Positions 8,647 to 63,188 of a DNA stretch of 64,000 nucleotides are shown here, in pieces. The DNA comes from Ostreococcus lucimarinus (Eukaryota), in NCBI GenBank assembly GCA_000092065.1, contig CP000581.1, one strand, 5' to 3'. Numbering within the stretch: the stretch's first letter is position 1; each line of letters starts with the position of its first letter. The notes beneath the pieces were generated by a model. It saw only the letters and a program-made list of their open reading frames with translations. It was not told where the DNA came from and did not search any database. Position numbers and translations under genes: made by a program.

Positions 8647-8803
8647 GTGCGCGAGACGACGGGCGAGGCGAGAGGGACGATTTGTTTTTTCGTCGTTGTT
8701 TGAAAATGAACAACAGCTCCGAGGCGCGAACGCGAACGCGAACGCGAACGAATGGTCGGCGCGAGACTGACGGTGCGGTGACGCGGGTTCGATGTGAACG
8801 CAG

Positions 8804-10282
8804 AGCGTGATATCGAAGGAGCGCGAGGGGAAGTATCTCGGGAAGACGGTGCAGGTGGTGCCGCACATCACGGATGAGATTCAAGACTGGATCGAGCGCG
8901 TGGCGCACGTGCCGGTGGACGGGACGGATAACGTGCCGGACGTGTGCGTGATCGAGCTGGGGGGGACCGTGGGTGATATTGAATCGATGCCGTTCATCGA
9001 GGCGCTTCGACAGTTTCAGTTTCGAGTGGGGACGGAGAACTTTTGCTTGATTCACGTGTCGCTCGTGCCCGTCGTCGGCGCCGTCGGAGAGCAAAAGACC
9101 AAGCCGACGCAGCACTCGATCCAGGCGTTGCGTTCGGCGGGGTTGTCGCCACACATGCTCGCGTGTCGCTCAAAGCACCCGCTCGAGCAAAGCGTCATGG
9201 ACAAACTCGCGCTGTTCTGCCACGTGAACCCGAAGTGTATCATCAACTTGTGCGACGTGAGTAATATTTGGCACGTGCCGCTGGTGATGCTCGAGCAGGA
9301 CGCGCTGAGGAATATCATGTCCCAACTGCAGCTTCCGTACGCTGATCCGGACATGCAGCAATGGGAGTACCGCGCGAAAAAGTGGGACGCCGTCACGACG
9401 CCCGTCACCATCGCACTCGTCGGAAAGTACACTGGTTTGGGCGACTCGTACTTGTCCGTCACCAAGGCTTTGCTGCACAGCTCCATTGCGTGCGATCGTA
9501 AACTCGACTTGTTGTGGGTCGAAGCGAGCGATTTGGAGGAGGAAACGAAGAGCGAGGATGTGTCCAAGTACGAAGCGGCTTGGGAGAGCGTCAAGAAGGC
9601 GCAAGGCATCTTGGTTCCGGGTGGTTTCGGCGGTCGCGGTACCGAAGGGAAAATGATCGCCGCCAAGTACGCGCGCGAGAACAAGGTTCCGTACCTCGGT
9701 ATCTGCCTCGGGATGCAGTGTATGGTGATTGAGTACGCGCGCAACGTTCTCGGTCTGTCGGACGCGCACTCAACGGAGATGGAACCGGAAACGAAGAACC
9801 CGGCCGTCATCTTTATGCCCGAAGGGAGCAAGACGCACATGGGCGGCACGATGCGTCTCGGCAGTCGAAGAACCATCTTCCAAACGCAGGATTGCATCTC
9901 CTCTCGCTTGTACGGATCGGTGCCGCACGTTGACGAGCGTCACCGTCATAGGTACGAAGTGAATCCGGAAATGGTGCCTCAGCTCGAGGCGGCTGGATGC
10001 AAGTTTGTCGGCAAGGACGACACGCAGTTGCGCATGGAGATTTGCGAAGTCGACGGCCATCCGTTCATGGTTGGCTGCCAGTATCACCCCGAGTACAAGT
10101 CTCGTCCTGGACGACCCTCTCCGCTTTTCATGGGGCTCATCCTCGCCGCGAGCTCTCAACTCGGTGAGTACAACTCGGACGAGGCGATCGCCGTTCGCAA
10201 GAGCGCAGCCTATAGCGAACACAACTCCGTGCTCACCAGTCCACTCAAGGTGCTCCGACAGAACGTCTCCCCATCCAAGTAG
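8804..10282 (+). CDS. CTPS: CTP synthase, exon 2 (synthetase and glutamine amidotransferase domains)
   Basis: The acceptor cag at 8801-8803 is followed by SVISKEREGKYLGKTVQVVPHITDEIQ, which continues the CTP synthase alignment in frame. A GATase domain (GICLGMQ, ...HPEY) follows. The 157-bp intron contains ACTGAC 32 nt before the acceptor. Confidence 0.9.
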   Translation, partial: SVISKEREGKYLGKTVQVVPHITDEIQDWIERVAHVPVDGTDNVPDVCVIELGGTVGDIESMPFIEALRQFQFRVGTENFCLIHVSLVPVVGAVGEQKTKPTQHSIQALRSAGLSPHMLACRSKHPLEQSVMDKLALFCHVNPKCIINLCDVSNIWHVPLVMLEQDALRNIMSQLQLPYADPDMQQWEYRAKKWDAVTTPVTIALVGKYTGLGDSYLSVTKALLHSSIACDRKLDLLWVEASDLEEETKSEDVSKYEAAWESVKKAQGILVPGGFGGRGTEGKMIAAKYARENKVPYLGICLGMQCMVIEYARNVLGLSDAHSTEMEPETKNPAVIFMPEGSKTHMGGTMRLGSRRTIFQTQDCISSRLYGSVPHVDERHRHRYEVNPEMVPQLEAAGCKFVGKDDTQLRMEICEVDGHPFMVGCQYHPEYKSRPGRPSPLFMGLILAASSQLGEYNSDEAIAVRKSAAYSEHNSVLTSPLKVLRQNVSPSK

Positions 10283-10521
10283 ACATCGACATCGTACACT
10301 AATCGCCTCTGAAGTAAGTACTAGGAACTTATACGTTGTAGTTGGCTCATCGTTACACAAATCTATGAACGACTTTCCCTTGAAAGTTTCTCCGCGCCGC
10401 GCGTTCGCCTCTCAGCGCGCGGCGTCCACGCCCGCACACCCAGACCGCGCGCGCGAACGCACCGCTCTCGGTCGTCGACGGCGACGATCGGTGCGCGAGC
10501 GTCCTCAGACGTCTCGCGCGC

Positions 10522-14781: not shown

Positions 14782-14963
14782 GACGTCGCCGTCTCGTCTC
14801 TCGTATACAAACACTCCAGATCGCCGTCGCGCGTCGACGCGAGGCGCGTCGACGCGCGTGATAAATTAAGTAAATCACACGCGCGCGGCGCCGACGCGTG
14901 CGATTTTCGCCGCGCGCGAGAAATCGCGACGCGCGCGTCGGCACGTCGCGACGCGCGGTCGCG

Positions 14964-17900
14964 ATGGCGTTCGGTGGATTCGGTGGGTTCGGCGCGGCGC
15001 AGCAGCCGCCGTCGCCGTTCGGCGCGGCGCAGCAGCCGCACAGCGGCGCGTTCGGCGCGACGGGGGCTCGACCGGCGACGACGGGCGCGTTCGGCGGTGG
15101 ATTCGGGGGGCAGGGCGCGGCGAGCGGGGGGTTCGGGAGCGCGATCGGCGGCGCTGGGAGCGGCGCGCCGGGCGCGGCGCGGGCGGTGGCGGACGCGTGC
15201 AAGTTTTGGAACCGCGGGAGCTGTAAATTCGGGGCGCGGTGTAACAATAAGCACTGCTGTTCAAAGTGCGGATCGACGGCGCATCGCGCGGTGAGCTGCT
15301 CGATGACGCCGGGGGTGAGCGGATATCGAGCGACGCGGGTGATGGATAAGGAGCTGTTGACGCCGGGGACGTCGTACGCGATGGTGCACTCGATCAGCGC
15401 GATGCCGGAGAATTTGGGGAAGAGCGCGGAGGAGATTCGGGCGGCGGCGTACGCGAGCGCGGATCAGCCGGCGACGAGCGCGGGTGGGTTCGGGGCGCCG
15501 GCGGCGACGAGTCCGTTCGGGGGGACGACGGGGGGAGGAAGCGCGTTCGGGGGGGCGAGCGGGGGAGCGTTCGGAGCGAGCGCGACGCCGGCGAGTCCGT
15601 TTGGGGCGCCGAGCGGGGGTGCCTTCGGAGCGTCGACGTCGACGCCGGGCGGTTTCGGGGCGTCAGCCGCGCCGAGCGCTTTCGGCGCACCGTCGGGAGG
15701 CGGAGCGTTCGGATCATCGCCCACGGGTGGGTTCGGGGCGCCCGCGGCGGCGCCGAGCCCGTTTGGCGGCGCCGCGACGCCGTCCGCTTTCGGAGCGCCC
15801 GCGAGTTCGGCGCCGAGCGGCGGTTTGTTCGGGTCCACGACAGGCGGTTTCGGCGCTTCTCCGGCGTCTTCCGCGTTCGGGGCGCCGTCGACCACGAGCG
15901 CGTTCGGGGCGAGCGCGCCGACGCCGGGTGCTTTCGGCGCCACGCCGTCGGCGAGTCCGTTTGGGGCGGCGCCTTCGACGCCGGGCGCGTTTGGGGCGCC
16001 GGCTTCGACGCCCGCTTTCGGCGCATCGGGCGCGTTTGGCGCCGCACCGACGCCGAGTGCGTTCGGAGCGCCGTCGTCTACGCCCGCGTTCGGTGCAGCG
16101 CCCGCGTCTAGCCCTTTCGGCGCCGCGCCCGCGGCGGCGAGTCCGTTCGGCGCGGCGCCGTCGACGCCGGCATTCGGTGCGGCGCCGACACCGGGCGCGT
16201 TCGGCGCGGCGCCATCATCCGGTGGCGGACTGTTCGGCGCGGCGCCTTCGACGGGTGGTGGTTTGTTCGGTGCGTCTGCGCCTTCCACTCCAGGCGCGTT
16301 CGGCGCGAGCACGCCCGCGCCCGGAGGATTTGGCGCTCCAAAGCCCGCGGGCGGGCTGTTCGGCGCTGCGCCGTCGACGCCAGCGACTGGGGGGCTGTTT
16401 GGTGCTAGTACAGGTGCAACCACTCCTGGCTTCGCCGGTTCAACGCCAGGGTTCGGCGCAGCACCGTCCACGGGTGGTTTGTTTGGCGCCTCGGCTCCGG
16501 CAACCGGAGGCGGCGGTTTGTTTGGCGCCGCGCCGTCTGCGGCGGCGACGCCTGCGTTCGGTGGATTTGGCGCGTCTGCGGCGACACCCGCGTTTGGTGC
16601 ATCTTCTGCGGCGTCCGGTGGTTTGTTCGGTGCATCCGCGCCGACTTCTGCGCCAAGCGGTGGACTGTTTGGCGCCGCGCCGACGTCTTCGCCCGGCGGC
16701 GGTTTGTTCGGCGCTTCGGCACCGGCGACCGGCGGTGCCTTCGGTGGCGGACTTTTCGGTGCCGCGAAGCCCGCGAGCGGTGGACTTTTCGGCGCCGCCC
16801 CGACGACCGGAGCTGCTCCTGGTGGCGGACTGTTTGGTGCGTCGGCTCCGACGTCGGCGCCGAGCGGCGGTTTGTTTGGCGCGGCTCCGACGGCGGGTGG
16901 TGGATTGTTTGGCGCTTCCGCACCCGCCGCTGGAGGTAGCATTTTCGGCGCAGGGGGGCTTGGAGCCTCGCAGCCGGCGATGGGTGCGCTCGTACCTTTC
17001 GGCGCTCAGCCTGCCGTTGCGTCCACTCCGTACGGGTCACCACTTCAGCCTCCGCAGCTCGCGCTGGCGACGACGGACCAAGCCCAAGCGAAGAGATCTT
17101 TGCTCGGTAAGATGCAAAGCCCAGCCGCTGGTGCCGCGGCGACGGCATTCCCAGTGCGTTCGCTGACGCCACGCTCTCCTTGGCTCACGAGCCGCGGTGG
17201 GTTAAGCCGCGAACCGAAGCCGCGTGGCGGCGCGTCTTTGCCGTCTCCTGGAGGCGCGGCACAAGCCATCGGAACACCCACTTCGGCTGCTCGCCCTGGG
17301 AGCGCGGTGTCCGTGGCCACGCCATCGAGTGGTGGGTGGTTGTTCAAGCCACGCGAGAATCCTCGCGCGCTCTTCATTCGCCCAGAGGGTGTTTCTGCTT
17401 CGCCAGCGCCGTCAGTCGCGCTCGCGGTTTCGCCGACGCGCGCAGATCAAAGCCCGGAACGTCGTCAAGTCCATTTCGCAGAGGACAAAGAAAACACTCC
17501 GGGTAAAGGCGCACCGGTTAGTCACAATATCATCATGCCGAAGCTCACTTCTGAAGGCTACAGCATGAACCCGACGCTTGAACAAATGGAAAGAATGTTT
17601 GAGCGCAGCGGCGACGACGCCCTCGCGGCGGTGGACAACTTTTCTGTGTCGAACGAAGCTTTCGGTCGCGTAAAGTGGCTCGAGCCCGTCGATGTTCGTG
17701 GCTTGGATCTCGATAAAATCGTGTCTTTCGAGCAGGCGTGCTTGTGCCTGTACCCCGAAGATCAAGGTATCGAGCCGCCGGAAGAGGGTGAAGGTTTGAA
17801 GAAGCGCGCCGAGGTAACGCTGTACGGAATCTTGCCGAAGAAGTCTGGCACCGCCGCCAAGGAAAAGTATCGCGAGAAGATTGTGAAACAAACCGAAAAA

Positions 17901-17966
17901 GCGGGCGCCGAACTCGTAGAATACAACCCAGATACAGGGATTTGGAAATTCATCCTGCAACTTTGA
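14964..17966 (+). CDS. NUP98: GLFG-repeat nucleoporin, Nup98-like, with N-terminal CCCH zinc finger and C-terminal Nup98 autoproteolytic-type domain
   Basis: ATG at 14964. C-x7-C-x5-C-x3-H finger (CKFWNRGSCKFGARCNNKH). More than 40 FG or GLFG repeats (GGLFGAAP...). The C-terminus (GLKKRAEVTLYGILPKK...EYNPDTGIWKF) aligns to the Nup98 autoproteolytic domain (GLNRKAEVTLDGVWP...EYRPETGSWVFKVSHF) but ends ILQL* without the HF|S cleavage motif. Confidence 0.8.
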   Translation: MAFGGFGGFGAAQQPPSPFGAAQQPHSGAFGATGARPATTGAFGGGFGGQGAASGGFGSAIGGAGSGAPGAARAVADACKFWNRGSCKFGARCNNKHCCSKCGSTAHRAVSCSMTPGVSGYRATRVMDKELLTPGTSYAMVHSISAMPENLGKSAEEIRAAAYASADQPATSAGGFGAPAATSPFGGTTGGGSAFGGASGGAFGASATPASPFGAPSGGAFGASTSTPGGFGASAAPSAFGAPSGGGAFGSSPTGGFGAPAAAPSPFGGAATPSAFGAPASSAPSGGLFGSTTGGFGASPASSAFGAPSTTSAFGASAPTPGAFGATPSASPFGAAPSTPGAFGAPASTPAFGASGAFGAAPTPSAFGAPSSTPAFGAAPASSPFGAAPAAASPFGAAPSTPAFGAAPTPGAFGAAPSSGGGLFGAAPSTGGGLFGASAPSTPGAFGASTPAPGGFGAPKPAGGLFGAAPSTPATGGLFGASTGATTPGFAGSTPGFGAAPSTGGLFGASAPATGGGGLFGAAPSAAATPAFGGFGASAATPAFGASSAASGGLFGASAPTSAPSGGLFGAAPTSSPGGGLFGASAPATGGAFGGGLFGAAKPASGGLFGAAPTTGAAPGGGLFGASAPTSAPSGGLFGAAPTAGGGLFGASAPAAGGSIFGAGGLGASQPAMGALVPFGAQPAVASTPYGSPLQPPQLALATTDQAQAKRSLLGKMQSPAAGAAATAFPVRSLTPRSPWLTSRGGLSREPKPRGGASLPSPGGAAQAIGTPTSAARPGSAVSVATPSSGGWLFKPRENPRALFIRPEGVSASPAPSVALAVSPTRADQSPERRQVHFAEDKENTPGKGAPVSHNIIMPKLTSEGYSMNPTLEQMERMFERSGDDALAAVDNFSVSNEAFGRVKWLEPVDVRGLDLDKIVSFEQACLCLYPEDQGIEPPEEGEGLKKRAEVTLYGILPKKSGTAAKEKYREKIVKQTEKAGAELVEYNPDTGIWKFILQL

Positions 17967-34223: not shown

Positions 34224-34782
<559 letters not shown>

Positions 34783-47382: not shown

Positions 47383-47437
47383 GTTACGAATTGCGAGTTG
47401 TGTATCAAGTATCATTGCTATCCCCTATCAACTAATT

Positions 47438-48487: not shown

Positions 48488-48617
48488 GTTATTTCGTACG
48501 CGCGATCTGTTCGCGGTCGCGGCGCGCGCGTGCGTCGGGCGCGCGCGGGTGTGGCGAGGCCCGTGGCGTCGAGCGCGACTGTAACTGTCTGCGGCGCTAA
48601 ACTCAAATACGCTATAG

Positions 48618-49430: not shown

Positions 49431-49471
49431 CCGCGACTCGAACTGCCGTCGCCGTCACTCGCGCGCGCGAG

Positions 49472-49546
49472 ATGCGACCGTCGTTGTGGCTCGTCGCGCT
49501 CGGCGCGAGCGCGCTCGGCGCGCCGCGAAGGGAGTACGATCACCAG
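49472..49546 (+). CDS. Phospholipase-D-family (HKD) protein, exon 1 (signal peptide)
   Basis: ATG at 49472 encodes MRPSLWLVALGASALGAPRREYDHQ, a classic signal peptide. Then CAG|GTGCGC donor. This exon is in a different frame from the ORF-track 49375 ORF. Confidence 0.6.
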
Positions 49547-49662
49547 GTGCGCGAGCGACGCGCACGACGCGCTCGAGCGACGCGCGCGCGCGCGCGCGCG
49601 GCGCGGATTCAAAAGTGAGCACCTCTCGGTGTCTCTCGGAACTGACGACGACGCGCGCGCAG

Positions 49663-50910
49663 AACGACACGTACGCGCCGCGGTTCCGCGAGTTCGTCGC
49701 GGCGGCGGACGCGCGCGTCGGATTGACGCCGTTCTTTTCGCCGGACACGAGCGCGGACGCGAGCGCGTCGCTCGTGCGCGAGGCGAGGGAAAGCGTGGAC
49801 GTCTTCGCGCCCGCGGTGGAATCGTGGAGCGGGTGCGGCGCGACGAAATCGGGGTGCGCGGGATGCGCGCCGGACCGCGTTCGCGCGAACGAAGCGTTCG
49901 TGTTGTTTCGAGAGCTGCTGAACGCGGCGCATCGAGGCGTGCGGGTGCGGTTGTTGACGAATCGGTTCGATAGCGTTCGAGAGTGTGCGGGCGCGGTTTC
50001 CGTGCTGAGCTACTTCGCGGAGAATTTCGACGTGCGCACGTACACCAGTACGACGTTCATGCACGCGAAGGCGATGATCGTCGATAATAACGTCACCGCG
50101 ATAAGCTCGGTAAACTGGTCGAAGTCGAGTTACTTGGAAAACAGAGAAGCCGGCGTCGTCGCGAGAAGTAAGAGCGTCGCGGAATTCGCGGGCGAGGTGT
50201 TTGAATACGACTGGAGCGTAGCCGAAGTTTGGCGAATGCCGGCAAACGATGGAATCAGCGAGGATGAGATTCAACGAATGAAATCGAGCGAGTGGCTCGA
50301 GCCTTTTCCGATACCATCGAGAAACATCTCCGCGCCGCATTACTCGCCGAAGAAACTGCGTGAGACGTGGTGTAAGGGCGCCGCGGTCAAGGTGAGTGTG
50401 AGCCCAGACGCAGGCGCGGCGACCATGCTCGAGGCGATGAACGCAAGTGCGACGCTGGACATTTACACATACCAAATTACGGACGATTTCTTCGCGTCAA
50501 GGCTATTGAAACTGGCTGATGCCGGCGTAATCGTGCGAATCGTGTTGTCGCGCGCCATCTTTTCCGACGTCGATAGAAAGCTATCCGCAAGTCTCGTCGA
50601 CAAGATGCGCGAGAATGAAAAAATCGTATTTCGCTCATCGCCGCGATATTATCGTTACGCACATTTGAAGATTATGATCGTGGATCGTGGACGCGAGGGT
50701 GAACGCGTCGTCTTGGCGACGGGAAATTTGTCGCCAAGCGATTTGCCGCTCCCAGTCCGTCCATTTCTCCCGTTGCACAAGGGCGGTGCATCCATCAACC
50801 GTGACTTCGAGATCGTGATGCACGACGCAAATATTGTGGAACAGTTTCAAAACTTATTCGACGGAGATATGGCGTACACCTCGCCGTATCGCCGACCGTC
50901 GAAGTTCTGA
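49663..50910 (+). CDS. Phospholipase-D-family protein, exon 2 (two HKD motifs)
   Basis: Acceptor gcgcgcag at 49660-49662, 16 nt after ACTGACG at 49641. Two HxKxxxxD motifs (FMHAKAMIVDNNVTAISSVNWSKSS and YAHLKIMIVDRGREGERVVLATGNLSPSD). The 116-bp intron removes the apparent overlap with the p27-like gene. Confidence 0.7.
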   Translation, partial: NDTYAPRFREFVAAADARVGLTPFFSPDTSADASASLVREARESVDVFAPAVESWSGCGATKSGCAGCAPDRVRANEAFVLFRELLNAAHRGVRVRLLTNRFDSVRECAGAVSVLSYFAENFDVRTYTSTTFMHAKAMIVDNNVTAISSVNWSKSSYLENREAGVVARSKSVAEFAGEVFEYDWSVAEVWRMPANDGISEDEIQRMKSSEWLEPFPIPSRNISAPHYSPKKLRETWCKGAAVKVSVSPDAGAATMLEAMNASATLDIYTYQITDDFFASRLLKLADAGVIVRIVLSRAIFSDVDRKLSASLVDKMRENEKIVFRSSPRYYRYAHLKIMIVDRGREGERVVLATGNLSPSDLPLPVRPFLPLHKGGASINRDFEIVMHDANIVEQFQNLFDGDMAYTSPYRRPSKF

Positions 50911-51019
50911 GGAGAAAGTTTTAGTACGGTTTTAGTACGCCTAAACACGTAGTAACAATCAATGCTGCGGTTGTAGCTATGCGCAGCGACTATAGAAATG
51001 GTAAAATACAGCAACGACA

Positions 51020-51655
51020 TTATGACGACTTGACCGCACGCTTCTCCCTCTCCTCCATCTTATGCATCACTTTGCGCGTAGCAATCAACCCGATAATCAA
51101 CCCACACCCGACGACGAGCAACCCTCGGCTCCCTCTGCTAACCTTGCCTTCGACAATTCCAGCCCCCAAAGCGCTCTTCACGGACGACACCGTGTTCGAC
51201 TTTGCCGCTCTCCTCGCCGCGAGTAACTCTTCCAGCGTCTGATGCGCCTCAGCGTCGAACGCCCGTCCCGACGCACGCCGCTGCGTCCCGCTCGCCGCCG
51301 CGTTGATTTCATTCCACTCCCTCGCCGGTGCTACCCCGGACGACTTCATCGCGCTTCGCTCACGCCACGCTCGCGCGGCATCTAACCTCGCGCGCATCCC
51401 GGGGCCGTAGACTTCGTCTTGAGGATCCGCCTCGGCGCCGCGACGTTTCAAAAGTGCTTCATAGGCAGCCTTGAGGGCGTGAAACTCTTCCTCCGTCGTG
51501 GTGCCGTCGCTCGTGTCGGGATGAAGCACGCGCGCGCGCGCGCGAAACGCCTTTTTTATTTCATCCACGGCTGCGCCTTTGGCGACGCCGAGGACGACGT
51601 GGGGGTCGTCCGCCTTCGGCATAGCGCTCCGGGCAGTGACGCGCGGGAGCGACAT
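51020..51655 (-). CDS. Tail-anchored J-domain protein
   Basis: True ATG at 51655. J domain DPHVVLGVAKGAAVDEIKKAFRARARVLHPDTSDG (HPD present). C-terminal TM (LLVVGCGLIIGLIATRKVM). Confidence 0.7.
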   Translation of the reverse strand: MSLPRVTARSAMPKADDPHVVLGVAKGAAVDEIKKAFRARARVLHPDTSDGTTTEEEFHALKAAYEALLKRRGAEADPQDEVYGPGMRARLDAARAWRERSAMKSSGVAPAREWNEINAAASGTQRRASGRAFDAEAHQTLEELLAARRAAKSNTVSSVKSALGAGIVEGKVSRGSRGLLVVGCGLIIGLIATRKVMHKMEEREKRAVKSS

Positions 51656-52730: not shown

Positions 52731-55353
52731 GTCGGACCTGTTCGCCAGGCTCAGCGCGCAGAAACCGCGCGAGCGCGCGCGTCGCGCGTCCGGCGCGCTC
52801 TCGCGATCGACGCGCGAAGCGGCGCGCGACGGCGGCGACGCGACGGTTGATGTCGAAGCGACGCCGTCGGCGTCGACGCGAAAGCGCGCGCTCGGACCGT
52901 CGGTGTCCATCGTCGGCGACGCGCCGTCGGACGAGGTGGTGTCGAAAGCGGTGCCGGTGCCGCGAACGGCGTCGACGGGGCGACCGCCGCTGCGAGCGGT
53001 GGGCGTGAACGGACGGACGAGCGCGGGGACGACGCGCGAGGGGAACAAACGCGGCGACGCGAGGAGCGAGAGCGAGAGCGACGGGGAGACGAGCGGTGAT
53101 TTGATGTTCGACGCGGAGAGAAGCCGAACGTCGTCGATGTCCGCGGGATCGACGCGCGAGGAGGAGGATCGAGCGACGGAACCGCTGCCGAGGAAGACGA
53201 ACGCGAGGCGGACGACGCGAACGCCGGTGACGACGGCGCGGTTCGACGAACAGTTGAAGCTCGCGGAGGCGACGAAACGGTGCCTGAGGGAGACGATGGT
53301 TTCTATTCGTGCGAATGGTCTCGATCCAGCGCGCGTGTTCGCGTCGTTGGCGAAACAGACGCCGGGAGGTGGTGGTTCGTTCGAGGCGTTGGCGCGCGCC
53401 ATCGACGCGCTGTCGCCGACAAAGCCGACGAAGGGGAAGCGCTTGAGCTTTTCTACGGCGGAGACGCAGACGCCGGTGACAGTGATGCGAGACGCGGCCT
53501 GTGATGTGAGCGAAGATGCCAGTTTTGATTCGGCGGGCGAAAGTTTCGAGGCGACGGCGGAAGAAGAGGAAGTTGTCGAAGAGGAAGGGACTTTTCCGAC
53601 GTGCGATTGCGGCGCGGCGGACTGTACTTTGGTGAAAATGCACGCGCGCGGCGGGCCTTTCGCGCTCTTAGATCACACTCGAACGGTTTCGTCGATCGAG
53701 TCCGAATCCATCGCGGAGACGGATGACGAAAACGACGCCGACGACGAATCGGTGGCTGGAACGGAGGTCGACGACTTGGACGATTTAGACGACGCCATGG
53801 ACGCGCTCGATTTGAACACTCGAAAGGATGACCTCGACGAAGATCAGACGGCTTTGACTGAGTCAGAAGTCGTTGAAGATGAAACGATCGAACCCATCGT
53901 GAAGTTCGGGACGCATATACGATTCGACGATTCGATCGTCGTCGATTCACCTCAAGTTGCCGGTGGTCGCGACGAAGTTGAAGCTTTGAAAGGTGAGCCG
54001 GAGTTGCCTACCGCGAAGATCGAAAATCACGTTCGATTCGAAGATTCAACTGCTTCAGATTCACCTGCCGTCGCTAGCGTTCGTCGTCCACGAGCGCGCG
54101 AGAGACGGCGCAAGGTTATTCTTGACAGCGACGCCGAGGACGAGAGCGAGTCGGACGAAGTCACGCTCAACGACGACGACAATGATGACGATGAAGCATC
54201 GGAAGAAGATCAGGACGCACCCGTGGTGAATACGCGACCACGCCGCATCGCAGCGCGGAAGCCACTCGTGCCTCGCAACGCTTTCGTGGACGATGATTTA
54301 TCCGGAAGTGAAGATTTTGATGACATCGATGACGAACTTCACTCTAGCGACGATGATTTCATCGACGACGACGACGACTCGTACGCGGATGATGATGCGG
54401 TGGAATACGACAGTGACGAAGAAAACGTGACACCAGTGCCGCGAAAGCCATCAAGTAAGATTGACGTGGCTAAGGAAATGAACGATAAGCTCGTCATCGA
54501 CGAGTACAGCCCGTCGAATCTGCACACGCCGACGCCACCAAAGGAGCTCTCGCCGACGTCTGCAGTGAAAGCGTTCAGACCACCACCTTCGCACAGTAAG
54601 GCTCTTCAGTCTGCGATTAAGAGCGTGACCAAGAATGGTGTTCAAAAGTTGAACTTTAATCGAGACAAGGACGCCATCACCGCTGCGCTATTCGCAGAGT
54701 TCAACGAAAAGGTGTTCGATGCCGAGCTTCCGTCGGACTTTGAAGTGACGTGGAACAAGAAGCTGCTGACCACGGCGGGCCTGACACATTACAAACGTTC
54801 AACGAAATCTGGTGAGACAACGTACAGCGCGCGCATCGAACTATCCAACAAGGTGCTGGACACAGTTGAAAAACTCGAATCCACGTTGCTCCACGAGATG
54901 TGTCACGCCTCCGCTTGGCTCGTCGACAAGACCGCGAAACCACCTCACGGGCCGGTGTTTAAGAAGTGGGCTAGTCAAGCGATGAAAGTTTATCCCGAGA
55001 CGAACGTCAGTACGTGCCACGCGTACACGATCCATCAGCCGTACAAATGGCGTTGCACCAGAGACTGGTGTCAACAAGAGTACGGCCGTCACAGCAAGTC
55101 AATCGATATCACGAAAAAGGCGTGTGGTGCGTGCGGGGGGAAGTTGGAGTACCTTGGCAAGTTCAAGAAGAATGGGGACGAAGTAGCCGCTCGAGCACCG
55201 ACGGCTTTTTCGTTGTTCGTGAAGGAGCACTTCAAATCCACCAAGAACGCTCTCGGCGCTTCGACTCCGCACAAAGACGTCATGAAACATTTATCACAGC
55301 GATGGAAAAATGAAACGGGCAAAGACGAAGTGATTGAACTCACCGACGAATGA
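52729..55353 (+). CDS. GCNA: GCNA/ACRC-like protein: long acidic disordered region, SprT-like zinc metalloprotease domain, zinc finger and C-terminal HMG box
   Basis: SprT motif STLLHEMCHASAWL (HExxH). C4-type finger ...CQQEYGRHSKSIDITKKACGACGG. HMG-box-like tail PTAFSLFVKEHFKSTKNALGASTPHKDVMKHLSQRWKNET. About 700 aa of Asp/Glu/Ser-rich disorder precedes the domain. ATG at 52729. Confidence 0.7.
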   Translation: MSDLFARLSAQKPRERARRASGALSRSTREAARDGGDATVDVEATPSASTRKRALGPSVSIVGDAPSDEVVSKAVPVPRTASTGRPPLRAVGVNGRTSAGTTREGNKRGDARSESESDGETSGDLMFDAERSRTSSMSAGSTREEEDRATEPLPRKTNARRTTRTPVTTARFDEQLKLAEATKRCLRETMVSIRANGLDPARVFASLAKQTPGGGGSFEALARAIDALSPTKPTKGKRLSFSTAETQTPVTVMRDAACDVSEDASFDSAGESFEATAEEEEVVEEEGTFPTCDCGAADCTLVKMHARGGPFALLDHTRTVSSIESESIAETDDENDADDESVAGTEVDDLDDLDDAMDALDLNTRKDDLDEDQTALTESEVVEDETIEPIVKFGTHIRFDDSIVVDSPQVAGGRDEVEALKGEPELPTAKIENHVRFEDSTASDSPAVASVRRPRARERRRKVILDSDAEDESESDEVTLNDDDNDDDEASEEDQDAPVVNTRPRRIAARKPLVPRNAFVDDDLSGSEDFDDIDDELHSSDDDFIDDDDDSYADDDAVEYDSDEENVTPVPRKPSSKIDVAKEMNDKLVIDEYSPSNLHTPTPPKELSPTSAVKAFRPPPSHSKALQSAIKSVTKNGVQKLNFNRDKDAITAALFAEFNEKVFDAELPSDFEVTWNKKLLTTAGLTHYKRSTKSGETTYSARIELSNKVLDTVEKLESTLLHEMCHASAWLVDKTAKPPHGPVFKKWASQAMKVYPETNVSTCHAYTIHQPYKWRCTRDWCQQEYGRHSKSIDITKKACGACGGKLEYLGKFKKNGDEVAARAPTAFSLFVKEHFKSTKNALGASTPHKDVMKHLSQRWKNETGKDEVIELTDE

Positions 55354-56594: not shown

Positions 56595-57029
56595 CTAGTA
56601 GGCGGCGACGCCGTAGATTGGGCCTCGAATGCGTCGAGCGAGCTGCAAATCCTTGGGCATGATGGTCACGCGCTTGGCGTGAATCGCGCAAAGGTTGCAG
56701 TCCTCGAAAAGATGCACCAAAAAGTCCTCCGTGGCCTCCTGTAACGCTAACAAACTCTCCGCCGTGTAACGCAACGGTTCGGGCGAGAGCTCGTTTGAAA
56801 TCTCTCGAACCTGCGAGTCGAGGGGAAAGCGAGGTTCGTCAGTGTCTGAGAGCGCGTCGGTCGAGCGCGGCGAGACGACGTTCGAATCGTTTACACCGTC
56901 TCGCGCGATGAAACGCACCAATCGCGCGAACGGCATCTTCCGAATCAACAAATCCGTCGTCTTCTGAAACCTCCTAATCTCCTTTAGCGCCAACGTCCCC
57001 GGGCGATAACGCCGCTTCTTCTTGTCTAA
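56595..57029 (-). CDS. CENH3: Centromeric histone H3 variant (CENH3/CENP-A-like), exon 2 (histone fold)
   Basis: [33 protein letters not shown]...[31 protein letters not shown] is an H3 fold, with a roughly 35-aa expanded loop 1 typical of CENH3. Minus-strand ACTGAC at 57073-57068, then gcgcagag acceptor at 57032-57030. The ORF-track MGKDELRF... start is a GTG inside the intron. Confidence 0.7.
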
Positions 57030-57475
57030 CTCTGCGCGCGAGGGAAAACGCGCATCACGCACCGCAGTCAGTCTTACGAACACTTCGCGCGCGCGCGCGC
57101 GCCGTCGGGACGCGCCGCGCGCGGCGACGAGGCGAACGAGCGCCGTCGCGGACCCTTCGGACTCCAACAGCCATTGAAATTTCAAAAATCTCAATTCATC
57201 CTTTCCCACGCGTGCGCCTTCTCAACGCCCCCACGCGCGCGCGCGTCGACCCCGAACGTCACATACCTTGTCGCTCCGCGCCATCCGCGCCCGATAATCG
57301 CCGCTGCGGCGCCTGCGTCGCGCAAAGTCACATAAATCGTCAGCGCGTTTCAAGTTTGAAAATCGCATTCGCCACCGCGCCTCGCCGCGCCCCTCTCCGC
57401 GCGTCCGCGTCGCCGCGCACCGCCGCGGAGGTTTCAAGCGTCACCCGCGCGCCTTCGCTCGCGTCGCTCGCGCAC

Positions 57476-57508
57476 CTTGAACCGTTTCCCGTGGAGTCGT
57501 CGCGCCAT
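57476..57508 (-). CDS. CENH3: CENH3-like histone, exon 1 (MARRLHGKRFK; an upstream ATG at 57619 would extend the tail)
   Basis: ATG at 57508 encodes an H3-like N-terminus (MARRLHGKRFK) ending AAG|GTGCGCGAG (donor at 57475). A phase-0 junction to exon 2 gives ...[16 protein letters not shown]. The implied intron, 57030-57475 (446 bp), is the longest in the window. Confidence 0.45.
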
Positions 57509-57627
57509 ATCGGCGCGAGTCGTCGAGTGCGGCGCCGCAGACGCGCGCGCGCGACGCCTCGATCGCGCCGCACGCCCCGCACGCGCGCGAGAATCGGTGA
57601 ACGGGACGAAGGAAGACATCGCGCGCC

Positions 57628-57681
57628 ATGGCGAACGCCACGGATCCGCTGGCGAAGACCGTGCGCGGGATGGACCCGCAG
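57628..57681 (+). CDS. PRP38: PRP38 pre-mRNA splicing factor, exon 1
   Basis: MANATDPLAKTVRGMDPQ matches the PRP38 N-terminus as recalled from memory (MANRTDPLAKNIHGTNPQ). Ends CAG|GTGCGT. Confidence 0.8.
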
Positions 57682-57808
57682 GTGCGTCGCGCGCGGCGGC
57701 GCGGATTCGCTCGAAACGACGCGCGAAACGCGCGAAACGCGCGTTCGCGAGGCGACCAGAGACGCGAGACTGACGATGCGATTCGCGCGCTCGTTTTCGT
57801 CGACGCAG

Positions 57809-58855
57809 AATATCATGGAGCGCATCACGCGCGATAAGGTGTACGCGATGACGTACTGGAAGGAGAAGTGTTTCGCGGTGAGCGCCGAGGCGCTCGTGGA
57901 CTTGGCGGTGGATTTACGCGCGGTGGGGGGAATATACGGCGGGAACAATCGAGCGACGGAGTTTCTGTGTCTCACGCTGAAGCTGTTGCAGATTCAGCCC
58001 GAAAAAGAGATCATATTGGAGTTCATAAAGAACGAAGACCACAAGTACGTGCGGTTGCTCGGGGCGTTTTATCTGCGCTTGGTCGGAAAGCCGACGGATG
58101 TATACCAGTATCTCGAGCCTTTATTGAACGATTACAGGAAGGTTCGGTATCGCAGCCGAGATGGCAAGTACGTGCTGACGCACGTGGACGAGTTTGTGAA
58201 CAACTTGTTGACGAAAGATATGTTTTGCGACGTCGCGTTGCCGCGGGTGCCGCATCGACAGGCGCTCGAAGCCGCGGGATCGCTCGAACCGCGCGTGAGC
58301 GCGTTAGAAACCGACGTGAAAGATTTAGAAGAGCAGTTGGAGAATGCGGTGGAGGAGGCGATCGGGCGCGAGATGCGGATGGACGTCGACGGGGACGACG
58401 ACGAGTTGGACACGACGGCGACACGAGACGCCGCCGGTAAGCGCCCACGTGAGGAGGATGAAGAGGGCGAGCTAGCGAACGCCTCCACGCCAGCGGCCAA
58501 AGTGAACCGGCGGCAACCAGTCGATCTTCACGATGAAGGAAACGCGCGCCATCGTTCGAGGTCGCCGCAGCGTCGCGGCGGCGGTGGCGACTACGGCGAG
58601 CGTCGCGGCGGCGGCGTGAGAGGGTTGTCGCGAGATCGCGGCGGAAATCGCGGTGATCGCGGCGAACATGCGCGCCCAGGCGATCATCGCGCTGATTACT
58701 TTCGCGAGTCTGAAAAAAAGGAAAAGAAAGAGAAGAAAGAGAAGAAGGAAAAGAAGGAAAAGAAGGAAAAGAAACCCGCCGCCGAGGTCGACCCAGAAAT
58801 CGCGGAGGCGAACGCCATTCGCGCCAAGCTCGGGTTAAAGCCCGTGCGAGGTTGA
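57809..58855 (+). CDS. PRP38: PRP38 pre-mRNA splicing factor, exon 2 (PRP38 domain and charged K/E/R-rich tail)
   Basis: Acceptor acgcag at 57806-57808, then NIMERITRDKVYAMTYWKEKCFAVSAEALVDLAVDLRAVGGIYGGNNRATEFLCLTLKLLQIQPEKEI..., the PRP38 domain. The 127-bp intron has ACTGAC 34 nt before the acceptor. The C-terminus has (EKK)n. Confidence 0.8.
   Translation, partial: NIMERITRDKVYAMTYWKEKCFAVSAEALVDLAVDLRAVGGIYGGNNRATEFLCLTLKLLQIQPEKEIILEFIKNEDHKYVRLLGAFYLRLVGKPTDVYQYLEPLLNDYRKVRYRSRDGKYVLTHVDEFVNNLLTKDMFCDVALPRVPHRQALEAAGSLEPRVSALETDVKDLEEQLENAVEEAIGREMRMDVDGDDDELDTTATRDAAGKRPREEDEEGELANASTPAAKVNRRQPVDLHDEGNARHRSRSPQRRGGGGDYGERRGGGVRGLSRDRGGNRGDRGEHARPGDHRADYFRESEKKEKKEKKEKKEKKEKKEKKPAAEVDPEIAEANAIRAKLGLKPVRG
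58718..58772. repeat. In-frame (GAAAAG/AAGGAA)n repeat encoding the (KEKKEK)n tail of PRP38
   Basis: gaaaaaaaggaaaagaaagagaagaaagagaagaaggaaaagaaggaaaagaaggaaaagaaa. Confidence 0.8.
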
Positions 58856-58903
58856 AAAACGTGCCAGCGTAGAGCAATAGCCGAGCAGACGTAGCGCGCG
58901 AGT

Positions 58904-58916
58904 TGTAATGATGTAA
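58904..58916 (+). promoter_or_regulatory. Two TGTAA poly(A)-signal-like motifs downstream of PRP38
   Basis: gagtTGTAATGATGTAAatc lies 50-60 nt after the PRP38 stop, in the convergent 3' region shared with calmodulin. Confidence 0.35.
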
Positions 58917-59083
58917 ATCAGACCGATTCATTTTTATTTAAAAGCGTCAAAATTGTCCCGCGACGTCGGGCTTGCGCTCGCTTCGTCCGGTCTCCGCCTT
59001 CGCGAAGACGCCGGCGAAATGAGCAATATAGTGGTAGAGTGCGATGAAAATAGTATAATTCAAGTTTCGTTACGTTGTCCGTC

Positions 59084-59599
<516 letters not shown>

Positions 59600-60089
59600 T
59601 CACTGCGTGTCGCGTCCGTGCGCGTCCGTCCGCGGTGTCGCGGCGCGGTGTGTCGCGCGCGCGTCGTCGCGATCGAGCGATCGCGCCCCGGCCGTCGAAT
59701 TCCGCGCGGGCGCGCGCGTCGACCGACCGACCGACCGACCGCGCCCCGCGATCGAGGTCGACGTCTCGTAGTCGACGCGTCGCGAACGCCATCGCGCGGG
59801 TCAACGCGTCGTGGTCAACGCGTCGAGTCGTGACTCGCGAAATCGACCCATCGATAAAACCACGAAACCCCGTCCCGCGCGCGCGCTCGAACGCGCGATG
59901 ACGTCGCGCGCGCGCGCGCGCGTCGACGCGCGCACACGCGCGCGCGCTCGTCGATCGGTCGACGTCACCGCGCTCGAACGCACGCGCGCGAAGCCTCGCG
60001 ACCGCTCGCGACCGACGCGCGCGGACGAGGCGCGAGACGGCGCGAGGGAACGCCGCGAGGCACGCGCGCGACGCGTGAAAAGGGATAGG

Positions 60090-60725
60090 ATGACGACGAC
60101 GGCGGCGATGCCGACGGCGGCGACGGCGATGAAGGCGCGCGCGTGCGGCTCGCGACGGGCGATCGCGGGTAAGGGCGTCGTCGCGACGACGCGGATCGCG
60201 ACGCCGGCGCGCCGTGGGGGGGTGGCGACGTACGCGGGCAAGGGTAAAGCGGGCGGACGACGCGGAGGGCCGGCGTCGCAGATGCAGCAGCAGGTGGAGC
60301 AGTTCATGCCGCCGATCGATCCGGATAACGAACAATTCGTGATCCACGTGCGCTCGAAGCGAGGGATTAAGGCTTGGTACCCTTTGAACGTGGTCACGGG
60401 CGGGAGCGCGGCGAACACGTTGGTGAAGGGGTTGGACAACGACATGTCCAAGGAGATGGCGCAGAAGTCGCTCTCGCAAAACATCGGCAAGGCCATCTAT
60501 AAGGATATGGCGGCGATCGATAAGGTTGCGCGATCGATGCCGATGTTGAAGCAAGCGAAGGAGATCGAATACGGTTTCAGCGTGCTCGACAAGGAGAACC
60601 CGCGGTCGATGTTCAGCCCGGCGAACGACAAGGTCTGGCTCATCCCGAGCGAAGAGGAGTGCGAGACGCCGGCTGACAAGTTCCAAGAAATGGGCGACAA
60701 CATGAAGAAGATGTTCGGTCAATAG
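60090..60725 (+). CDS. Hypothetical protein with transit-peptide-like N-terminus (possibly plastid-targeted)
   Basis: Internal ATG at 60090. Ala/Thr/Arg/Gly-rich N-terminus (MTTTAAMPTAATAMKARACGSRRAIAGKG...), then a globular-looking domain (FVIHVRSKRGIKAWYPLNVVTGGSAANTLVKGLDNDMSKEMAQKSL...). No confident family assignment. Confidence 0.45.
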   Translation: MTTTAAMPTAATAMKARACGSRRAIAGKGVVATTRIATPARRGGVATYAGKGKAGGRRGGPASQMQQQVEQFMPPIDPDNEQFVIHVRSKRGIKAWYPLNVVTGGSAANTLVKGLDNDMSKEMAQKSLSQNIGKAIYKDMAAIDKVARSMPMLKQAKEIEYGFSVLDKENPRSMFSPANDKVWLIPSEEECETPADKFQEMGDNMKKMFGQ

Positions 60726-60797
60726 ATGCCTCAAATTTGTTCATTCATACACACACAATCAATATCATATCATACGTTACGACACATTTCGTCGCGC

Positions 60798-62462
60798 TCA
60801 CGCGGCGCCCGCGTTGAACTCAAAACGAGGTCCGGGGACGAGCGTAATCTCGCCGAACGGTTCGCTTGCGTCTTGATACGCGGTGAGGTAGTCGGCAGCG
60901 ACGAGAACGAGGGTTTGGTAGAATAATCGCGCAGCTTTTGCCCGAGACAAGTGGTTGCGAACGCACAGATCCGTCACGCTCACGCTCTCCATTTCCGTAT
61001 CCGGTTTCTCAGCGGTGAAGACGGCGCGCGAGAGGAACTGCAACAGATTCAGGGACGCTTTGCCGATTTCGCGTGGCGTCGCGTGCGCGAACGTACCTTG
61101 GTCGTCCGTTTCGAGAAGTGAGGGCTGTTGAGACGGCGTCGTGGTCGTCGTTCGGCGGCGGTGCGATCCAGCTCGTGGTTGTTCGCCGAAATCGATTTCG
61201 CTTCCGAGGATGTGGTCGTAGTTATCCGGAATGGCGAGATCTTCATCGGGGTCTTCGGGAATGAACATGTCAGCAAGTTTCGAACCACTGTCCAAACCCA
61301 AACCAGAGCTGCGCCCTGACTTGTGAAAAGTGGAGGGAGTGATTTTTTCGCGGTTGAAAAATCCAGTCGTAAATCCAGAGCCGGGCGTGGACTTTTTTGC
61401 AGAAAGCACGGCGCGCATCTTTTCTGTCGACCGCACGTTTCCGTGTTCGTCATACATCACATCATGATAGTGATCACGTTCTTCATCACTTTCATACATG
61501 ACTGGTTCTTCACCGATGAATTGCTCAAACGCGAATCGCGCGTTCGGGTTGACGACGAAGAGTTCGAGCGCCGATCGCGCGCAGATCGAAGGATTCACCT
61601 TGAACGCTTCAGAGTGGAAGAAGAAGTCACGCTCTGCTTCTTTGCCTTCGATGACCGCCTCAGCAGTGTCCTCGTCTGGGCGTTGCTGAACGATGTCCCG
61701 CGTGCTGGAGAGCCACGCACGAAAGACATCCGACCCAAGATGAGTCTGGTTATCAAACACGAACACGCGAGTGCGAGCCATCGCGGCCGTACGACGTTTC
61801 TTCGCCTTGGGTTCAGGAAGCGCCATCATTCGCTCAGCTTCGGCTTCGCGCTCGCGCATGCGCTTCAACTGAGTTCCGATGGGTTCTTGTTCAAGTGGTT
61901 CCTCATCCTCCACGGCGAGCGGGAGCGCTTCTTCGAGCGTATCGTCGGCGCGCGCAATTTGATAGTCCATGTATTCTTCATCTTCTTCCTGTATGCTGAT
62001 CCGTCGACCATCGTCGCCGCGCATCGCAAACTCGTACTCGTATTGCTCGTCCATGCGCGCTTGATCTTCGTCCACGGGCATTTGTAACTCGAGAAGGTTG
62101 ATTCTGTCGTCGTCTCGCACGGTGAAGCGATCGCCCGCCGCGCCGCCCGCCACGTCGAACGCGTCCTCCAATTGCTCGCTCGCGACCATGTGAAACGCCT
62201 GCGAGTCGTACGCCTGCGACACATGCATGTGCTCAAATTCAGGTCGCGCCAATATATCACCATCGTACGCCATCGTCATGGTCGCGCGCGCGTCTCTTCC
62301 TCCCTCTGGTTTCTCGGGAAGAAGATTACGATCCTGGCGTTGCGCCCGCGACAACGCATTCAATCGCGACAACGTCTTCATGCAATCTTCATACAAGAAT
62401 CGCACCTTGCGCGCATACACCGCAACAACCCCTCGCATGAGCAACGCGGCCAATCGCAGCGC
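60798..62462 (-). CDS. RAD21: Cohesin kleisin RAD21/SCC1 (Rec8 family), exon 3
   Basis: Begins ALRLAALLMRGVVAVYARKVRFLYEDC, the Rad21 N-terminal domain. The C-terminal winged helix ARLFYQTLVLVAADYLTAYQDASEPFGEITLVPGPRF matches the Rad21/Rec8 C-terminal domain. Acceptor tag (plus cta at 62463-62465). Confidence 0.8.
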   Translation of the reverse strand, partial: ALRLAALLMRGVVAVYARKVRFLYEDCMKTLSRLNALSRAQRQDRNLLPEKPEGGRDARATMTMAYDGDILARPEFEHMHVSQAYDSQAFHMVASEQLEDAFDVAGGAAGDRFTVRDDDRINLLELQMPVDEDQARMDEQYEYEFAMRGDDGRRISIQEEDEEYMDYQIARADDTLEEALPLAVEDEEPLEQEPIGTQLKRMREREAEAERMMALPEPKAKKRRTAAMARTRVFVFDNQTHLGSDVFRAWLSSTRDIVQQRPDEDTAEAVIEGKEAERDFFFHSEAFKVNPSICARSALELFVVNPNARFAFEQFIGEEPVMYESDEERDHYHDVMYDEHGNVRSTEKMRAVLSAKKSTPGSGFTTGFFNREKITPSTFHKSGRSSGLGLDSGSKLADMFIPEDPDEDLAIPDNYDHILGSEIDFGEQPRAGSHRRRTTTTTPSQQPSLLETDDQGTFAHATPREIGKASLNLLQFLSRAVFTAEKPDTEMESVSVTDLCVRNHLSRAKAARLFYQTLVLVAADYLTAYQDASEPFGEITLVPGPRFEFNAGAA

Positions 62463-62557
62463 CTACGAACCGAACGTCTCGCCGCGCGCGCGCCGCGCGC
62501 GGGGGAACCGCCGTCGGTCAGTCTCGGACGCGAGAAACCGCGCTTCACTAAACCTAC

Positions 62558-62665
62558 CAACGGCGTCGGCGGATTGATGATCGTCTCGCACGAATCGCGA
62601 ATAGAGATCGTGTTCGTCTTATTCCTCGTCATTCTGTCCGCCTTCTCCGGCTGATTCGCCAAAAT
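62558..62665 (-). CDS. RAD21: Cohesin RAD21/SCC1, exon 2
   Basis: ILANQPEKADRMTRNKTNTISIRDSCETIINPPTPL aligns to the Rad21 N-terminus as recalled (IAAHLERKLRKNQVADTDIGVSVDSILFPEAPIAL). Flanked by acceptor cgcgcag and donor TTG|GTAGGT. Intron 2 is 95 bp with ACTGAC 54 nt before its acceptor. Confidence 0.7.
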
Positions 62666-62728
62666 CTGCGCGCGCGCCACCGCGTCGTCGTCAGTCTGCG
62701 CGCTCGCGCGCGCGCCGACGTTTAAACT

Positions 62729-62782
62729 TTGGACGCACCCAAATCTGCCCCATCGCGCCTTTCGCGCACAGGAGCTCGCTGG
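62729..62782 (-). CDS. RAD21: Cohesin RAD21/SCC1, exon 1
   Basis: ATG at 62782 encodes MFYSSELLCAKGAMGQIW, matching the Rad21 start as recalled (MFYSQFILAKKGPLGTIW). Then |GTGCGT donor. Intron 1 is only 63 bp but contains ACTGAC 24 nt before the acceptor. Confidence 0.7.
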
Positions 62783-62974
62783 AGTAGAACATTATGCGCT
62801 ACGCGTTCGATCTCGCGTCGTCTCGCGTCGTCGCGCGCGTCGCGCGATCGACCGTCGTCGTTTGAAGTTTCGCCGCCTCGACCGTCTCGGAGGCGCTGAT
62901 CTGTGAGACAGCGCACAACACGGATTTCGAGCGTCGCGCGCGGCGCGCGAGCGCCGCCGCACAGCGCGACGACG

Positions 62975-63056
62975 ATGGCGAGCGCCATGGATGCGTTCCA
63001 GGGAATGCAAAGGAAACTTCAAGAGGAATCTCGCACGTACGAGAGTCTGGCGCAAG
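62975..63056 (+). CDS. PFD6: Prefoldin subunit 6 (beta-type), exon 1
   Basis: MASAMDAFQGMQRKLQEESRTYESLAQ, then phase-1 G|GTGCGT donor at 63057. Confidence 0.65.
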
Positions 63057-63188
63057 GTGCGTCGACGAAGACGCGACGCGCGCGTCGTGATTACGATTTC
63101 GATTGACTTGGGTCAACGAAACGAACGGCGATCGAGCGAGACCGTCGCGAAGACTGACGAGGGAAGACGCGCGCGCGCTGTGTGATAG

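Follow-up and report, generated by a model that had tools for sequence, protein, structure and literature searches.

Constrained donor, branch and acceptor signals in the introns of a 64-kb window of Ostreococcus lucimarinus

Introduction

The introns closest to those treated here have been described in the same species. In a section entitled 'The peculiar case of Ostreococcus', Irimia and Roy (2008, PLoS Genet, PMC2483917) reported that, among 319 Ostreococcus lucimarinus introns located outside chromosome 2 and confirmed by expressed sequence tags (ESTs), 87.15% carry the branch motif ACTGAC and 66.5% the form GACTGACG. According to the same work, the 5' splice site of these introns is a 4.8-bit GTGCGTG, the 3' end prefers CGCAG and the distance from branch to AG shows a broad peak at about 20-35 nucleotides (nt), while the introns of chromosome 2 have weak signals. 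It has also been reported in a preprint that a GYGCGY donor is preferred across Mamiellales and that their U1 small nuclear RNA (snRNA) candidates have a standard pairing region (10.1101/2022.06.08.495308). The present analysis concerns the introns found in a stretch of 64,000 nt of O. lucimarinus DNA (assembly GCA_000092065.1, contig CP000581.1), the whole of which is referred to here as the window. These are almost certainly ordinary U2-type GT-AG spliceosomal introns of the constrained class of O. lucimarinus, which is typical of the genome outside half of chromosome 2. Donor, branch, acceptor and distance all match the published class (GTGCGTG donor consensus, ACTGAC in most introns, CGCAG acceptor, median branch distance of 31 nt), without any substantive difference. 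The ACTGAC/GTGCG rule of this genome is already known, having been published in 2008, and since both the rule and the contrast with chromosome 2 have been in the literature from that year, the window adds confirmation and local detail, in the form of a local RNA-backed set of introns, an AG-free zone past the branch and the conservation of the signals between strains.

An original prediction, made from the letters of the window, had spoken of a yeast-like, tightly constrained branch and donor code in an alga rich in guanine and cytosine (GC), which agrees with the published genome-wide analysis (PMC2483917); the interpretation and part of the follow-up proposed with it are therefore in the literature already. 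The introns of Saccharomyces cerevisiae and other hemiascomycetes are indeed similar in belonging to intron-poor genomes, in lying towards the 5' ends of genes, in having a near-invariant donor and branch and in their weak or absent polypyrimidine tract. However, the yeast signals are GUAUGU and ACUAAC in AT-rich introns, whereas here they are GUGCGY and ACUGAC (with a G-U pair to U2) in GC-rich ones, and in O. lucimarinus, unlike these yeasts, the GC-rich introns coexist with a large class of chromosome-2 introns whose signals are weak. In the window, ACUGAC occurs in 14 of the 15 complete introns and ACUAAC in none, and GTATGT is used only by CENH3 intron 2; the likeness to yeast introns is one of degree of constraint and not of sequence. 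Two further systems are comparable. The introner elements of Micromonas, another member of the Mamiellales, share with the window introns their shortness and recognisable branch points, but form repeat families of high identity throughout, whereas the window introns share splice signals only. In Yarrowia lipolytica, Giardia and Trichomonas the 3' splice site is likewise set by a strong branch motif and not by a polypyrimidine tract (PMC2483917), but at a fixed, very short distance from the branch, which in the window introns ranges from 17 to 55 nt.

Introns of the window and their RNA support

Fifteen complete introns lie in the window and one more is cut by its left edge. All fifteen start with GT and end with AG. 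They are given below with their donor, branch and acceptor; here and in the protein junctions quoted in the text, a slash marks the splice boundary.

1 to 69, plus strand: intron of a small conserved gene (about 159 amino acids, aa), cut by the window edge; ACTGACG at 32-38, AAG acceptor at 67-69, 33 nt past the branch A
157 to 338, plus strand: further intron of the same small gene (protein of about 157-159 aa), 182 nt; G/GTGCGT, ACTGACG at 303, CAG
2924 to 3090, minus strand: HP30-like Tim17/SAM gene intron, 167 nt; G/GTGCGC, ACTGACG, CAG
8647 to 8803, plus strand: CTP synthase intron, 157 nt; G/GTGCGC, GACTGACG, CAG
34324 to 34435, plus strand: CDC48 intron 1, 112 nt; G/GTGCGT, GACTGACG, CAG
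34663 to 34823, plus strand: CDC48 intron 2, 161 nt; G/GTGCGT, GACTGACG, TAG
37966 to 38176, minus strand: mitochondrial ATP synthase gamma intron, 211 nt; G/GTGCGC, GACTGACG, TAG
43592 to 43719, minus strand: dynamin-like gene intron, 128 nt; G/GTGCGT, GACTGACG, CAG
49547 to 49662, plus strand: PLD-family gene intron, 116 nt; G/GTGCGC, AACTGACG, CAG
56811 to 56918, minus strand: CENH3 intron 3, 108 nt, in frame and stop-free; G/GTGCGT, CACTGACG, CAG
57032 to 57266, minus strand: CENH3 intron 2, 235 nt; atypical donor G/GTATGT, GACTGACT (ACTGACT), CAG
57313 to 57475, minus strand: CENH3 intron 1, 163 nt; G/GTGCGC, variant branch GCTGACG, CAG
57682 to 57808, plus strand: PRP38 intron, 127 nt; G/GTGCGT, GACTGACG, CAG
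62463 to 62557, minus strand: RAD21 intron 2, 95 nt; atypical donor G/GTAGGT, GACTGACC, TAG
62666 to 62738, minus strand: RAD21 intron 1, 73 nt; G/GTGCGT, GACTGACG, CAG
63057 to 63188, plus strand: prefoldin subunit 6 (PFD6) intron, 132 nt; G/GTGCGT, GACTGACG, TAG

Twelve of the thirteen introns of the original prediction are confirmed at their coordinates, and the other, a long intron in CENH3, proved to be two. The span of 8647 to 63188 that had been given for the set leaves out the HP30-like intron and the one at 157-338, and the shortest intron, put at 63 bp, measures 73 nt on recounting.

Evidence for splicing comes in the first place from RNA. Contigs that had been assembled from sequencing runs and contain uninterrupted coding sequence were retrieved by look-up of the spliced proteins. 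Those derived from complementary DNA (cDNA) are 98-100% identical to the window and skip exactly the predicted introns. The cDNA-derived contigs bear out eight of the fifteen junctions as exact 40-mers, the remaining seven being placed by homology or annotation. The 40-nt exon-exon junctions are found verbatim for CTP synthase (contigs L001 and L002), both introns of CDC48 (transcript contig L003), dynamin (L004 and L005), the HP30-like gene (L006 and L007), the PLD-family gene (L008 and L009) and ATP synthase gamma (L011-L013). The spliced products are identical to annotated proteins of O. lucimarinus strain CCE9901, located on a contig of 1,152,508 bp whose size would fit chromosome 1, in the case of CTP synthase (XP_001415558.1), CDC48 (XP_001415566.1), the HP30-like gene (XP_001415886.1), the PLD-family gene (XP_001415569.1) and ATP synthase gamma (XP_001415896.1), and splicing of dynamin restores the conserved ...SSVLEAL/VGRDFLPRG....

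One of these contigs, L008, begins with AGTGGTATCAACGCAGAGTACGGG, which we take to be the SMART template-switch adaptor; L008 therefore derives from cDNA or RNA. Together the cDNA contigs are colinear with 3089-8220, 39127-43597, 43718-45639, 46220-49546 and 49660-51645 (about 25 kb), with gaps only at motif-bearing introns, and therefore no further introns are present over those stretches in those transcripts. In the roughly 39 kb without cDNA cover, a scan with a relaxed pattern gave no new intron candidates, and four genes located there (TIG, GATase, ARID/RFD and CS-domain) are single-exon in the reference annotation. Single contigs of 5-6 kb (L004-L009; 2111-8220, 39127-45639 and 46220-51645) cover three to five adjacent genes, opposite strands included; therefore either adjacent transcripts overlap in this very compact genome or the assembler merged them. 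Positions 1-1925 of L003, which hold a methyltransferase and a CTP_transf_1 gene upstream of CDC48, have no match to the window; for this 1.9 kb, either the assembly is chimeric or the genes are arranged differently in that strain.

The intron at 157-338 had been described as lying in the 5' leader of a carrier gene. It instead interrupts the coding sequence of a different, small gene upstream, as indicated by homologues and by contig L018, which comes from a relative's cDNA and skips 160-337 with the same junction sequence as predicted. Transcript-derived homologues (P0275-P0278) read ...AYYTRET/VNLSSAYG... across it; contig L010, which starts at window position 592, is uninformative on this point. 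The intron cut by the window edge belongs to the same gene. L018 aligns from window position 68, homologues, again transcript-derived, read ...FICALE/VLLWSVV across the junction, and the AAG is the sole AG downstream of the branch motif.

For three further genes the junctions are supported by the continuity of protein domains. The spliced N-terminus of PRP38 matches the Pfam PRP38 profile without a break from 2 to 171, the unspliced open reading frame (ORF) beginning at profile position 7. In RAD21, Pfam Rad21_Rec8_N (1-95) runs in one stretch over both junctions, and in PFD6 Pfam Prefoldin_2 (1-105) does so across its junction, the spliced protein being identical to XP_001415573.1. An exact look-up among NCBI O. 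lucimarinus proteins did not find the spliced models of PRP38 (366 aa) and RAD21 (608 aa), and that of dynamin was found in metagenome or transcript sources only and not among these proteins. The reference models of dynamin, PRP38 and RAD21 may differ at their 5' ends.

Three introns in CENH3

The original prediction had placed a single intron of 446 bp in CENH3, at 57032-57475 (444 nt as recounted), and had missed the one at 56811-56918. Single long introns, at 57032-57475 or 57032-57420, give implausible N-termini and were replaced by a three-intron model derived from the annotated protein. This protein (P0152, 135 aa) reads MARRLHGKRFK/APQRRLSGADGAERQ/ELDKK...FARL/VREIS and maps to four exons; the stretch read as one intron is therefore two, at 57313-57475 and 57032-57266, separated by an exon of 46 nt (57267-57312). 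Across intron 1 it reads MARRLHGKRFK/APQRRLSG..., with an N-terminus common to the O. mediterraneus orthologue (P0154). Across intron 2, ...GADGAERQ/ELDKKK... maps to the 46-nt exon and the exon starting at 57031, and across intron 3 the sequence is ...KMPFARL/VREISNEL.... In a diverged strain (contig L014) the GCTGACG of intron 1 is kept and the donor and ACTGAC of intron 2 are unchanged, the alignment ending before the acceptor of the latter. ORF callers read through intron 3 because it is 108 nt long, in frame and free of stop codons, and a 204-aa read-through 'histone H3' (56595-57209, minus strand) has been recorded on more than 600 metagenome contigs. The annotated CENH3 of O. tauri (P0159) also seems to include translated intron sequence (…ARLVRIIVLACARVREIS…).

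Donor, branch and acceptor signals

The core of the claim that every intron found shares the same signals is confirmed, but with the missed introns added the signals are not universal, the full rule being obeyed by 12 of the 15. An exon G precedes all of the introns and the donor is G/GTGCGY in 13, the exceptions being GTAGGT in RAD21 intron 2 and GTATGT in CENH3 intron 2; a G at donor +7 is found in eight. ACTGAC is present in 14 introns, CENH3 intron 1 having GCTGAC, and GACTGACG in eight. NCTGAC followed by YAG is common to all fifteen, and the AAG of the edge intron falls outside this pattern. Each of the fifteen contains exactly one CTRAY, always as NCTGAC, whose A is the predicted branch nucleotide. 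At the acceptor, C occupies -5 in 13 introns, G occupies -4 in 12 and a pyrimidine occupies -3 in all. From the branch A to the 3' end of the intron there are 17-55 nt (median 31), the shortest distance being that of the PLD-family intron and the longest that of RAD21 intron 2. A search of the 15 introns for the U12-type donor [AG]TATCCTT or for the branch TCCTTAAC at 10-15 nt from the acceptor gave no match.

In all 15 introns the acceptor is the first YAG past the branch, and in 12 no AG of any type comes before it. AG is depleted between branch and acceptor, with 4 in 433 nt versus 77 in 1509 nt upstream (P = 2e-6). Intron length ranges from 73 to 235 nt (median 132). The introns are GC-rich, as had been stated (mean GC 0.66), and in general have no polypyrimidine tract: pyrimidines make up 0.45 of the sequence from branch to acceptor versus 0.42 of whole introns, and runs of 7-10 pyrimidines occur in three. 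All of the introns fall within approximately the first 110 codons (after codon 18 in PRP38, 18 and 54 in RAD21, 33 and 109 in CDC48), a strong 5' bias of the kind usual in genomes with few introns.

Window-wide, ACTGAC shows no enrichment, with 22 sites over the two strands versus 20.0 +/- 4.3 in shuffles, and GGTGCGY only a mild one (50 versus 36 expected). What distinguishes ACTGAC is its location. Fourteen of the 22 sites lie inside the 15 introns, which make up 1.7% of the strand-sequence, an enrichment of about 116-fold (Poisson P ~2e-18), and one more sits in the intron at the left edge. In 15 of the 22, a donor of the form G/GTGCGY (or GTAGGT) precedes ACTGAC by 43-220 nt and a YAG follows it at 17-55 nt. 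When a strict composite was defined as G/GTGCGY, then ACTGAC, then the first YAG, all within 260 nt, 13 distinct sites (14 hits, two with a common acceptor) were obtained, compared with 0.7 +/- 0.8 and a maximum of 4 in 200 dinucleotide shuffles.

Beyond the introns ACTGAC is scarce, with 7 sites versus ~19.7 predicted from dinucleotide shuffles, a roughly three-fold deficit (Poisson P ~0.001). These seven sites comprise two sense, four antisense and one intergenic, and composition seems a better explanation of the scarcity than avoidance of cryptic branch sites on the sense strand. The window as a whole has 54-65% GC and carries densely packed eukaryotic genes, as judged from Pfam. GC falls to 0.54 at 40001-44000, compared with 0.58-0.65 elsewhere, an interval that covers the 3' part of a WSD-domain gene and most of dynamin.

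Prediction from the signals and rejected sites

That introns can be predicted from the sequence, as had been proposed, is largely borne out in the window. With the strict pattern 12 of the 15 introns are recovered; of its other hits, the one at 17395-17514 is likely to be false and the one from 57062 uses a wrong alternative donor. On the half of chromosome 2 that is rich in introns, the rule is reported to fail (PMC2483917). With the branch relaxed to NCTGAC, CENH3 introns 1 and 2 are recovered and a site at 47216-47362 (plus strand) in the coding region of GPDH is added, which was rejected as an intron, cDNA contigs showing it unspliced.

The likely false positive at 17395-17514 (minus strand; 120 nt, G/GTGCGC, GACTGACG, CAG) is antisense inside a Nup98 ORF of 1022 codons (14898-17966, plus strand), between the FG repeats and the autopeptidase domain. 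It was treated as a chance hit because 0.7 composites are expected per window; a smaller possibility is that it marks an unannotated spliced antisense transcript. The 3' end of Nup98 (17940-17966, plus strand) was checked for a hidden intron and none was evident. The ORF ends directly past the autopeptidase domain (…GIWKFILQL*) and AT-rich sequence follows; at this end, the HFS cleavage motif of Nup98-96 proteins, a Nup96 part and a downstream exon were not seen. GC content by codon position gave no discrimination between overlapping ORFs.

Two other candidates were discarded. One, at 54971-55343 (minus strand), is antisense in the SprT gene. The other takes ACTGAC at 46201 (plus strand) and CAG at 46221 for the 3' part of a GPDH intron. 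At that point (about 46220), however, L008 and L009 begin, right after the SMART adaptor, so that it represents the 5' terminus of the GPDH mRNA and not an acceptor, the start codon being at 46255. Thus, the ACTGAC at 46201 is located just upstream of the GPDH transcription start and is not a branch site.

Proposed mechanism and alternative explanations

In our reading, the introns are defined almost wholly by the donor G/GUGCGY, a single branch (G)ACUGAC(G) and the first YAG, usually CGCAG, 17-55 nt further on. In the mechanism that we propose, SF1/BBP would be the first to bind ACUGAC, and the motif would then base-pair, through one G-U pair among others, to the GUAGUA that is invariant in U2 snRNA, leaving the penultimate A bulged as the nucleophile. 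The 3' splice site is probably chosen by position, as the first YAG past the branch, because there is no polypyrimidine tract; such a choice fits the AG-free zone past the branch. As for the donor, a standard U1 snRNA would presumably read it despite the mismatch at +4, and its constraint would therefore probably reflect later contacts (U6, U5, Prp8) or proteins, since U1 pairing gives no explanation for +3G and +4C. It is conceivable, though rather unlikely, that the code is read through a lineage-specific change in a spliceosomal protein (for example SF1/BBP, U1C/LUC7 or Prp8) and not through the snRNAs.

Several observations weigh against assigning all of these introns to the constrained class or against parts of this mechanism. 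Three of the 15 depart from the rule in one signal, and AAG serves as the acceptor of the edge intron. Seven junctions (PRP38, both of RAD21, PFD6 and the three of CENH3) are supported by homology or the reference annotation only, and that at 157-338 is seen only in a relative's cDNA. Extra introns with unrelated signals may exist in the approximately 39 kb outside the cDNA contig cover. Finally, an Rfam scan of the window returned no hits and no snRNA, and we infer the U2 pairing and the roles of SF1, U1 and U6.

One alternative is that the uniformity arises from selection of the evidence: if only motif-bearing introns were found, the argument would be circular and the true set more varied. 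Two of the three introns that had been missed or merged do deviate (GCTGAC; GTATGT), the edge intron ends in AAG, and genome-wide 13% of the confirmed introns outside chromosome 2 lack ACTGAC (PMC2483917). Nevertheless, this explanation is improbable, given that gaps in the cDNA contigs appear only at motif-bearing introns along about 25 kb, that the reference annotation gives four further genes a single exon, and that after the additions the full rule still holds for 12 of 15 and NCTGAC plus YAG for 15 of 15. Moreover, the genome-wide 87% is an EST-based value, in whose derivation the motif played no part (PMC2483917).

It is very unlikely that a second, specialised spliceosome or compensating snRNAs, apart from the machinery used on chromosome 2, serve these introns. 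The possibility was raised by Irimia and Roy (PMC2483917), and it would accommodate both the mismatch of GUGCGY to standard U1 at +4 and the presence of two very different intron classes in one genome. However, only single-copy spliceosomal RNAs were found in O. tauri (cited in PMC2483917), U1 candidates with a standard pairing region have been identified in Mamiellales (10.1101/2022.06.08.495308), and the introns themselves are GT-AG, free of U12-type motifs and provided with an ACUGAC that fits the universal CURAY consensus.

Conservation between strains and the origin of the uniformity

A metagenomic contig (L014, together with L017) from a strain about 6.5% diverged aligns across 57065-64000. 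Within the introns of this region, positions belonging to the signals changed in 1 of 89 cases and the other intron positions in 59 of 703 (P = 0.005), the figure for coding exons being 141 of 3008. The sole signal change is TAG to CAG at the acceptor of PFD6, which reads CAG in L014 and L017 and is still YAG. The signals of the PRP38 intron are kept in L014 and those of both RAD21 introns in L014 and L017.

These data bear on whether the introns could be copies of a recently spread mobile element of the introner type, as in Micromonas, with signals shared by descent. Micromonas, a related alga, carries thousands of introner elements, and the window introns are alike in size and GC. However, an all-against-all comparison of the 15 introns yielded only matches of 14-23 nt, mostly CG/GACGCG repeats or the shared donor end, without family-wide similarity, and therefore they do not form a repeat family of this type. 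Furthermore, the sequence between the signals diverges among strains, with indels, while the signals stay fixed, and the position of CENH3 intron 3 appears to be common to O. tauri, whose annotated protein reads into the intron. An introner origin is accordingly extremely unlikely, and the uniformity of the signals is the result of purifying selection in an intron-poor genome and not of shared intron ancestry. Chance co-occurrence of the motifs in GC-rich sequence, suggested by 22 ACTGAC sites against 20 expected and by at least one perfect composite (17395-17514) that is probably no intron, is refuted by 13 composites against 0.7 expected (maximum 4 in 200 shuffles), eight of them excised in cDNA contigs.

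Consequences for gene annotation

The expectation that ORF-based annotation would lose 5' exons in this genome is correct for prokaryote-style calls and not for the reference annotation, which has correct spliced models for seven of the genes (CDC48, CTP synthase, PFD6, ATP synthase gamma, HP30-like, PLD and CENH3). ORF-only calls are truncated to 692 instead of 804 aa in CDC48, 491 instead of 587 aa in CTP synthase, 244 instead of 263 aa in the HP30-like gene and 653 instead of 711 aa in dynamin, and further truncated calls are those of ATP synthase gamma (266 aa) and RAD21 (546 aa). Most of the truncated or read-through products are found again on metagenome contigs, in numbers from tens to hundreds; the miscalls of CDC48, CTP synthase, the HP30-like gene and CENH3 are each present on hundreds, that of dynamin on only a few.

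Implications

Ostreococcus is abundant in marine metagenomes, and on hundreds of contigs its genes with introns are truncated or read through when called in prokaryote style; a simple model with three signals would repair most of these miscalls. At a broader level, O. lucimarinus exemplifies, in textbook fashion, how genomes poor in introns converge on rigid splice signals, with the twist that the same cell also splices the weak-signal introns of chromosome 2. If the code were indeed read by spliceosomal proteins, this would let one spliceosome handle both the rigid introns and the weak-signal introns of chromosome 2.

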